NCBI GenBank assembly: GCA_963748625.1
Contig: CAVVJT010000010.1
Span: 96,001-160,000 of the forward strand
Source: an uncultured Chloroflexia bacterium
Lineage (GTDB): Bacteria > Chloroflexota > Limnocylindria > Limnocylindrales > CSP1-4
Direction of reading: 5' to 3'
Length of the DNA: 64,000 nt
Shown here: piece after piece, positions 25,956 through 26,104 of the stretch
Layout of the letters: each line of letters begins with the position of its first letter
Numbering within the stretch: position 1 is the stretch's first letter
Position numbers and translations under genes: made by a program
Notes under the pieces: model-generated
Told to the model about the DNA's origin: nothing
Seen by the model: only the letters and a program-made list of their open reading frames with translations
Database searches by the model: none

Positions 25956-26104
25956 AACCGCTGGGCGGGCCTTGCGTGCAGGATCCGGCGCAACCTTGCC
26001 GCTGCGCGGGCGGCAGACCCAGGGCTGAGGGCCATGGTGCCCTCATCCTGCCGCTGGGCGGGCCGACCGTGCTGAATCCTGCGCGCAGCGCCCGCCGGGC
26101 GGCA
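25956..26104. repeat. 149-bp four-box palindromic hairpin element (E2)
   Basis: CCGC-N3-GCGG boxes at 41/52/41 spacing; TGCGTGCAGGAT/ATCCTGCGCGCA arms. Confidence 0.8.

Follow-up and report, generated by a model that had tools for sequence, protein, structure and literature searches.

The element described here, E2, lies in a window of 64 kb, which is the whole stretch of DNA that was analysed, and occupies a 380-nt gap between ligA on the minus strand and an FAD/BBE oxidase gene on the plus strand. The features of the locus are as follows, in window coordinates.

23602-25866, minus strand: ligA, NAD-dependent DNA ligase (Pfam DNA_ligase_aden, OB, ZBD, HHH and BRCT)
25954-26106, no strand: E2, a full-length four-box repeat copy of 153 nt (nhmmer, model R1 and family alignment)
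25957-25969, no strand: E2 box 1, ACCGC-TGG-GCGGG (30 of 43 family copies have the canonical CCGC-N3-GCGG at box 1)
25973-25992, no strand: E2 left spacer palindrome (family consensus approximately TGYGYGCRGRATYCYGCRCR)
25998-26010, no strand: E2 box 2, GCCGC-TGC-GCGGG (canonical in 27 of 43 copies)
26013-26047, no strand: variable centre of E2, 35 nt, with its own hairpin at 26026-26045 (34 nt in 40 of 43 copies)
26050-26062, no strand: E2 box 3, GCCGC-TGG-GCGGG (canonical in 24 of 43 copies)
26071-26088, no strand: E2 right spacer palindrome, which mirrors the left (32-nt inverted repeat, 82% direct repeat, family alignment)
26091-26103, no strand: E2 box 4, CCCGC-CGG-GCGGC (canonical in 33 of 43 copies)
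26247-27647, plus strand: FAD-binding/BBE-type oxidase gene (Pfam FAD_binding_4 and BBE)
27686-28737, plus strand: DinB/MDMPI-like gene and ankyrin-repeat gene (Pfam), cargo also found in this interval in relatives
28741-31356, minus strand: pcrA/uvrD-type helicase gene (Pfam), the syntenic partner of ligA

The ligA start codon is 87 nt from E2. An open frame of 905 codons on the minus strand (23602-26319) extends beyond the ligA start and across E2, as far as an ATG at 26319; it was rejected as the ligA reading because alignment with the proteins of relatives does not reach past the start at 25866, beginning at residue 2-4 when the N-terminal 200 residues are compared. Naive gene calling would therefore furnish ligA with a false N-terminal extension of 151 residues, and other copies of the family may carry the same risk. 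On the other side, the oxidase gene begins 140 nt downstream of E2, with GGAGGA located 9 nt 5' of its GTG start.

In all 20 relatives that were compared, pcrA is upstream of ligA in the same orientation, and the interval between them ranges from 0.76 to 4.1 kb with varying plus-strand cargo. DinB and/or ankyrin genes are present in the interval in 16 of the 20 and neither is present in four, while the BBE oxidase was found there in none of the relatives and no family element was found between ligA and pcrA in any of them. E2 and the oxidase gene are thus both particular to E2's genome among these 21 intervals. The earlier note had placed E2 between a minus-strand core gene and a plus-strand accessory gene, and this is indeed its position. 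As a check it had suggested asking whether E2 co-occurs with the inserted genes in related genomes; it does not in these, with DinB/ankyrin cargo in 16 relatives and the element in 0 of 20. The interval thus varies in 20 of 20 relatives that have no element.

Contig pieces of the same species from three to four public runs covered both junctions of E2 with zero to one differences, and no allele lacking E2 was found among them, so these pieces give no direct sign of present mobility. One low-depth record joins position 25458 to 26004 with 23 other letters in between.

Reading the window sequence directly, the four boxes of E2 are ACCGCTGGGCGGG at 25957, GCCGCTGCGCGGG at 25998, GCCGCTGGGCGGG at 26050 and CCCGCCGGGCGGC at 26091, with start-to-start distances of 41/52/41 nt, exactly as the earlier note had reported. 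The degenerate box pattern SCCGCYGSGCGGS has seven matches in the window against 1.91 expected, a number attained in none of 100 shuffles of the window, and three of the seven are inside E2. The outer spacers are complementary (TGCGTGCAGGAT at 25973-25984 with ATCCTGCGCGCA at 26076-26087), which bears out the pairing that had been proposed for them, and they belong to a 32-nt inverted repeat with 78% complementarity (25958-25989 / 26071-26102). The repeat finder additionally returned an inner inverted repeat (26010-26025 / 26039-26054) and a direct repeat relationship of 82% between the two halves. E2 on its own folds at -105.7 kcal/mol; relative to 60 mononucleotide shuffles, z is -5.19.

Two symmetries in the earlier description were upheld in part. 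The central hairpin TGAGGGC/GCCCTCA is present (26026-26032 / 26039-26045), but it is peculiar to E2, as the centres of the family fold like shuffled sequence (mean z +0.12; three of 43 below -1.5, with E2 being one of the three). The pair GCGTCTCG/CGAGACGC, which had been read as an outward continuation of the symmetry, likewise exists (25946-25953 / 26132-26139), but its centre is 12.5 nt off the axis of E2 and the other family copies show no conservation in these flanks, so it is not part of the element's symmetry. By family alignment the limits of E2 are 25954-26106; its 153 nt are one base above the family norm.

Several known kinds of element were looked for at the locus. A permissive Rfam scan of 25000-27000 gave seven matches, all below the gathering threshold (best E = 1.5, 18.4 bits against 42). 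No terminator-like site, defined as a GC hairpin followed by a T-run, occurs in window 25700-26400, and a promoter scan found no sigma-70 consensus in the gap between ligA and the oxidase gene.

E2 belongs to a repeat family. In the window's own assembly (4.63 Mb in 10 contigs, approximately 71% G+C, 98.3% complete), BLAST with E2 gave 73 matches, and three rounds of nhmmer gave 94 hits that merged into 47 loci, 43 of which are full length (145-156 nt). E2 itself is recovered as locus C10:121957-122104, and the sequence-only model R1 scores it at 82.3 bits on the plus strand and 75.6 bits on the minus strand; every family locus scores about equally on both strands. The loci are single and dispersed over six contigs. 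Each copy consists of two inverted half-elements joined by a 34-nt centre, each half-element of a box, a 28-nt semi-palindromic spacer and a second box that starts 41 nt after the first, and each box of a small GC palindrome, CCGC-N3-GCGG. The consensus reads CCTCCCGCCCrGCGGGCCTTGTGTGCGGAATTCCGCGCAG-n5-GCCGCCnGGCGGGAGG, followed by the centre and then by the mirror image. The left arm and the reverse-complemented right arm share one common consensus, and the element thus has terminal inverted repeats. From end to end, 39 of the 43 copies measure 152 nt, two 151 nt, E2 153 nt and one 161 nt, and the centre is 34 nt in 40 copies. E2 therefore has homologues, in a family of 47 loci, in which box spacing is tightly kept, so that the outcomes named in the earlier note as refuting its reading did not occur.

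Mean pairwise identity is 64% over the whole element and 44% in the centre, with the mode of pairwise values at 0.60-0.70, and most copies are old. Pairs above 90% identity are confined to three copies on contig C7 that have flanks in common and to one pair at 92% with unrelated flanks. The three C7 copies (C7:19719-19867, 23343-23489 and 30105-30251) are 98-99% identical, and perfect tandem arrays adjoin them, in which a 16-nt unit made up of a box and its flank, GCCTGCCGCTGGGCGG, is repeated 3.2 times. The region is a segmental duplication in which boxes have been amplified locally.

Genes were called with our own crude GC3-based caller. None of the 47 locus midpoints falls inside a called gene. 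The 43 full copies are distributed over 18 tandem, 13 convergent and 12 divergent gaps, where the background of gaps of at least 150 nt comprises 844 tandem, 265 convergent and 439 divergent ones. Convergent gaps are mildly over-represented (13 against approximately 7.4 expected, chi-square p ~0.06), and 15 of the 18 tandem copies are closer to the upstream stop codon than to the downstream start. We conclude that a four-box family exists that is intergenic and has a fixed geometry. The copies are also clustered to some degree, with eight adjacent pairs less than 10 kb apart against approximately three expected (an estimate for 43 random sites in 4.6 Mb) and five copies inside C10:1278514-1330341.

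Tandem repeats with a period of at least 6 nt adjoin 32 of the 43 copies within 150 nt (45 of 86 flanks), compared with 170 of 1230 control intergenic windows (14%); beside E2 there are none. These arrays are locus-specific, with periods of 7-57 nt and up to nine copies, and several of them are partial tandem duplications in which the element's end is reiterated together with flanking DNA. One guess is that the arrays come from slippage at a hairpin-forming palindrome.

The pattern of conservation in the family is one of sequence and length. Whole copies fold much more stably than shuffled sequence (mean z -4.3; 41 of 43 below -1.5), and on average 37 of 59 arm positions are paired, with arm-to-arm complementarity at 0.632 within a copy against 0.672 between copies. 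No excess of Watson-Crick pairs, long-range or local, was found over the expectation from column composition, alignment columns shared no mutual information above noise, and a structure was not supported by RNAalifold (consensus energy -12.4 kcal/mol, covariation term -0.74). The 4-bp arms are perfect in 115 of the 172 boxes, and 114 of these follow the canonical CCGC-N3-GCGG; a single mismatch is seen in 51 boxes and two mismatches in six. Departures from the box consensus break the pairing, and no compensatory change was seen in the broken boxes. G-U wobble shows no strand bias, with 93 sense against 117 antisense mismatches in the 18 tandem copies. Substitutions in the spacers are 333 transitions against 106 transversions, whereas those in the centre are 199 transitions against 465 transversions, a contrast which indicates that the arms are constrained and that the centre is constrained in length only. 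The constraint is therefore on arm sequence and on length throughout; pairing is not visibly kept copy by copy, and neither strand is preferred. Length changes are almost absent despite the divergence of the copies, which counts against reading them as a spreading repeat, and neutral decay of dead copies, in its simple form, would not predict such a result.

Species differ in whether a given syntenic site holds a copy, and two of the four to five other family loci compared with relatives are clean filled-versus-empty sites. The gap at C4:263377 measures 242 nt in the own genome, where two relatives have 55 and 52 nt; at C2:153062 the lengths are 253 and 285 nt in the own genome and 88 and 114 nt in relatives. 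The neighbouring genes are unchanged in each case. At C10:765704 and C10:1295074, the element's gap is occupied in relatives by 1-2 kb of different DNA, and three copies are in a region without a collinear match in two relatives. When the block C10:1285001-1305000 was compared with one relative, length differences greater than 300 nt were found in two of three gaps with an element and in three of four without. This small sample shows that elements and gene turnover both favour long gaps, with neither shown as the cause. The element looks like the thing inserted rather than a site for gene insertion.

Searches for the signs and agents of transposition were negative within the following scope. 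Flanking direct repeats of 2 nt occur in five of the 43 copies, of 3 nt in three, of 4 nt in one and of 5 nt or more in none; when the boundaries were shifted by up to 8 nt, at most four of 43 copies had a 4-nt flank repeat. None of the 70 genus genomes, own genome included, gave a hit to Y1_Tnp/RAYT (Pfam PF01797), where controls were positive in six of 14. Among the best 60 of 232 self-BLAST pairs, the longest matches are two-copy repeats of approximately 1-1.2 kb, no repeat of at least 300 bp has more than two copies, and only such two-copy repeats were available as candidates for a parent insertion sequence. That the RAYT search of 70 genus genomes identified no mobilising enzyme counts against the spreading reading as well, and so do the lack of target-site duplications, the two-copy limit of the long repeats among those best 60 pairs, the age of most copies, the uncompensated boxes and the covered junctions of E2 with no allele lacking it.

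The filled and empty sites, the lack of an E2 counterpart in the 20 relatives, the 92% pair with unrelated flanks and the partial tandem duplications speak for gain and spread. On balance, we consider E2 to be probably one member of a dispersed repeat family that is non-coding, specific to its lineage and of the REP/BIME/REPIN/ERIC kind, within a genus-wide set of sister families; it would be a non-autonomous spreading unit. Such an element would spread, or would have spread, into intergenic DNA through a protein acting in trans, which would read the boxes either as single-strand hairpins or as duplex palindromes and would not be a RAYT. Recognition of the boxes by a protein of this sort would keep box sequence and spacing while the centre drifts. 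E2 would then have inserted in the lineage of its own genome as a passenger in a divergent promoter region, and most likely it has no required role at ligA in the acquisition of neighbouring genes.

Among the closest known systems are REP/REPIN/BIME sequences with their RAYT (TnpA-REP) transposases (PMC3733652, PMC8266576). The four-box family resembles them in having small GC-rich palindromic units at high copy number in intergenic positions only, inverted unit pairs with a conserved spacer length, a sequence that differs between related species and no target-site duplication; its many extragenic palindromic units and its inverted doublets, which can fold into one long hairpin, are REP/REPIN features. 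PMC3733652 describes REP clusters as tandem reiterations of units with flanking DNA, as is seen at four-box copies. Unlike RAYT-linked REPs, where the gene for the Y1 HUH transposase typically has REPs at its sides, the family has no Y1/RAYT gene in the 70 genus genomes, and unlike REPs it shows neither a GTAG nor a CGTC tag in conserved form. Of its 86 ends, 22 carry CCTC as the outer 4-mer, 19 CCTG and five CCAA, where CCTC is given as a variant of CGTC in PMC3733652, and GTAG or CTAC occurs in seven of 43 copies at no fixed position. The family is therefore not a RAYT-linked REP family, as two defining features, enzyme and tag, are absent. The stems of the boxes are 4-6 bp with a 3-nt centre, compared with the 8-9 bp listed for CGTC REP families in Table 1 of PMC3733652, and the repeat unit is a rigid 152-nt module, where a REP unit is a single hairpin or a doublet. 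According to the same table, CGTC families are not associated with transposase genes, which gives a palindromic family without a RAYT a precedent.

Other repeat systems share some of these properties. The ERIC/IRU sequences of enterobacteria are imperfect palindromes of approximately 127-150 nt that are intergenic and present in tens to hundreds of copies; to our knowledge, neither their transposase nor their mode of spread is known. ERIC as generally described resembles the four-box family in size and symmetry and comes from another phylum. ERIC copies are much more alike than 64% and are thought to be transcribed; in the four-box family no constraint peculiar to one strand was found. The Correia elements of Neisseria are MITEs of 100-155 nt with terminal inverted repeats that are intergenic and non-autonomous, and the four-box family agrees with MITEs in size, terminal inverted repeats, intergenic position and non-autonomy. 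It differs from them in having no target-site duplication and in being mirror-symmetric over the whole element, where a MITE is so at its ends only, and no parent insertion sequence was found for it among the best 60 of the 232 repeat pairs; owing to the absence of target duplication it is not a classical MITE family. Integron attC sites, by comparison, are imperfect palindromes arrayed at cassette ends beside an intI gene; four-box copies are single and dispersed over six contigs and do not look like an array.

Elements of similar build occur in other species of the genus. Model R1 gave full-length but weak matches (22-28 bits) in seven of the 69 other genus genomes. The exact four-box pattern has 24 matches in the own genome and one each in five other genomes, and a reversed control of the pattern matched in one of 70. 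The elements of other species have box starts approximately 39-42 nt apart within each half and different boxes, of the types TCGC-N3-GCGA, GTCCGC-N3-GCGGAC, (GT)CCCGC-N3-GCGGG(AC) and CCGTGCGT-N3-ACGCACGG. The last of these forms a family with 19-bp palindromic boxes and a longer centre, spaced 41/63/41 nt (locus L217, G052:C57, 1501-1675; also L218-L221), which is multi-copy on several contigs at approximately 70% identity in at least four other species, according to a copy test in which 11 candidates were scored per genome. GGATTCC-like motifs in this family resemble those in the spacers of the four-box family. The sister families of the genus thus keep the spacing and differ in their boxes. 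At one locus, shared by the own genome and four other genomes, copies adjoin a common Pyr_redox-like gene and/or ABC-permease operon, and their boxes are of three types; this could reflect either inheritance with concerted box change or repeated insertion at a favoured gap.

In a wider scan of genome contigs, the four-box pattern was matched in 27 stretches; those from Streptomyces, Micromonospora and other non-Chloroflexota have no extended palindromes and were set aside as chance-like. Viral contigs gave no stretch with a four-box element, and metagenome contigs gave none with the family-specific half-element pattern. A literature search on repetitive extragenic palindromic sequences in Chloroflexi, which was not exhaustive, returned no family like the four-box repeat. 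Within the genus, looking for a partner gene by common neighbours across species yielded only large paralogue families, the Pyr_redox/ABC locus and an HTH_3-like family. In one relative, two near-identical copies (2984-3130 and 9558-9704 of L216, G024:C5:58500-71500) are 0.3-0.5 kb upstream of HTH_3-type genes, and a homologue of one of these genes (48% identity) is between two own-genome copies, at C7:934170-934685. The HTH_3-like gene was rejected as a partner, as its neighbourhood fits the chance estimate for a paralogue family of four to five members.

Going further, we tentatively raise the idea, which we think unlikely as it stands, that the genus has a RAYT-independent superfamily of fixed-geometry four-box elements whose boxes change in concert between lineages. 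The concerted boxes CCGC/GCGG, TCGC/GCGA, GTCCGC/GCGGAC and CCGTGCGT/ACGCACGG would fit co-evolution with a candidate box-reading protein. If this were true, that protein could be an enzyme of a new kind that mobilises palindromic repeats, or else a protein of chromosome architecture that has dispersed docking modules of its own, and the near-absence of length change in old copies would mean that selection still acts on each of them. Families of palindromic repeats that have no RAYT are already known. A genus with sister families that have a common geometry and differing boxes is a good place to seek the missing protein by co-variation. The family also makes up a noticeable part of the long intergenic regions, rich in repeats, of an uncultured soil/freshwater Chloroflexota lineage and is a handy marker for comparing strains and species.

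The alternative that fares best is that the elements are docking arrays selected by the host, in which the boxes and spacer palindromes would be putative duplex sites for a dimeric DNA-binding protein; we regard it as doubtful. The candidate protein would be a nucleoid-associated protein, a topoisomerase or a regulator, and the fixed spacing would position the bound proteins. Such arrays would resemble BIMEs, which bind IHF and gyrase in E. coli. An array of this kind would agree with the retention of element length and 41-nt box spacing despite sequence divergence, with the same 41-nt spacing in sister families that have other boxes, with spacer changes that keep purine/pyrimidine identity, and with the lack of compensatory change, of strand bias and of better arm pairing within copies than between them. 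The two copies upstream of HTH_3 genes in one relative and the homologue between two own-genome copies also point this way, but the HTH neighbourhood is estimated to be at chance level. Against docking arrays, furthermore, no binding protein was identified, one third of the boxes are damaged, copies are not tied to a gene class or orientation, and the distance from box 2 to box 3 is 51 nt in one family and 63 nt in the other, so that the halves are not in one helical phase. That old copies have almost no length changes, and that the centre still measures exactly 34 nt after losing nearly all its sequence similarity, would fit either a docking array or an unseen box-reading protein.

Less probable again, and in our estimation improbable, is an action in RNA, where the elements would be UTR hairpins that stop transcription or shield mRNA from exonucleases. 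Such roles are described for REP and ERIC. The strong folding potential would suit such a role, as would the placement of 31 of 43 copies in gaps of the tandem or convergent type, where a gene ends on at least one side, together with the mild excess in convergent gaps and the proximity of tandem copies to the upstream stop codon. However, 12 copies, E2 included, are between divergent genes, G-U-compatible mismatches on the sense strand are not in excess, and the covariation term and consensus energy from RNAalifold and the average of 37 paired positions in 59 are at odds with a kept RNA structure. The T-run of a terminator is absent both from E2 and from the family consensus, and Rfam has no match to the family.

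The proposal of the earlier note, that the elements are recombination or attachment sites which mark or mediate the insertion of accessory cassettes, is weakly supported and in our judgement very improbable: E2 does adjoin the BBE oxidase gene, the only gene of the interval that is found there in no genome but its own, and the gaps at C10:765704 and C10:1295074 and the non-collinear region with three copies do differ from relatives, but the ligA-pcrA interval varies without the element, the two clean empty sites have unchanged genes, element-free gaps vary as often (three of four against two of three, in one 20-kb block), contexts are split 18/13/12, and the 43 copies are not arrayed and have neither a duplicated target nor a conserved flank.

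The preferred reading, a dispersed and non-autonomous repeat, has one further candidate in the window, where E2 is the only clear copy. At window 38449-38608 the family model matches over its full length but weakly (16.7 bits, E 3.8e-4), in a non-coding gap and next to tandem repeats of approximately 30 nt at 38380-38440. The four boxes of this match, CCCGCC-N3-GGGAGC, all point in the same direction and are approximately 41/50/42 nt apart. It may be a degenerate copy or a copy of a sister family, and it may also be the element that the earlier note called E1. Further along, window 38895-63064 (C10:134895-159064) is approximately 86-89% identical over more than 20 kb to a 28-kb contig, C1, of the same assembly. 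From this near-duplicate it follows that the assembly holds a second related strain or species for that region, and its contamination figure of 7.7% is consistent with the second-strain reading.
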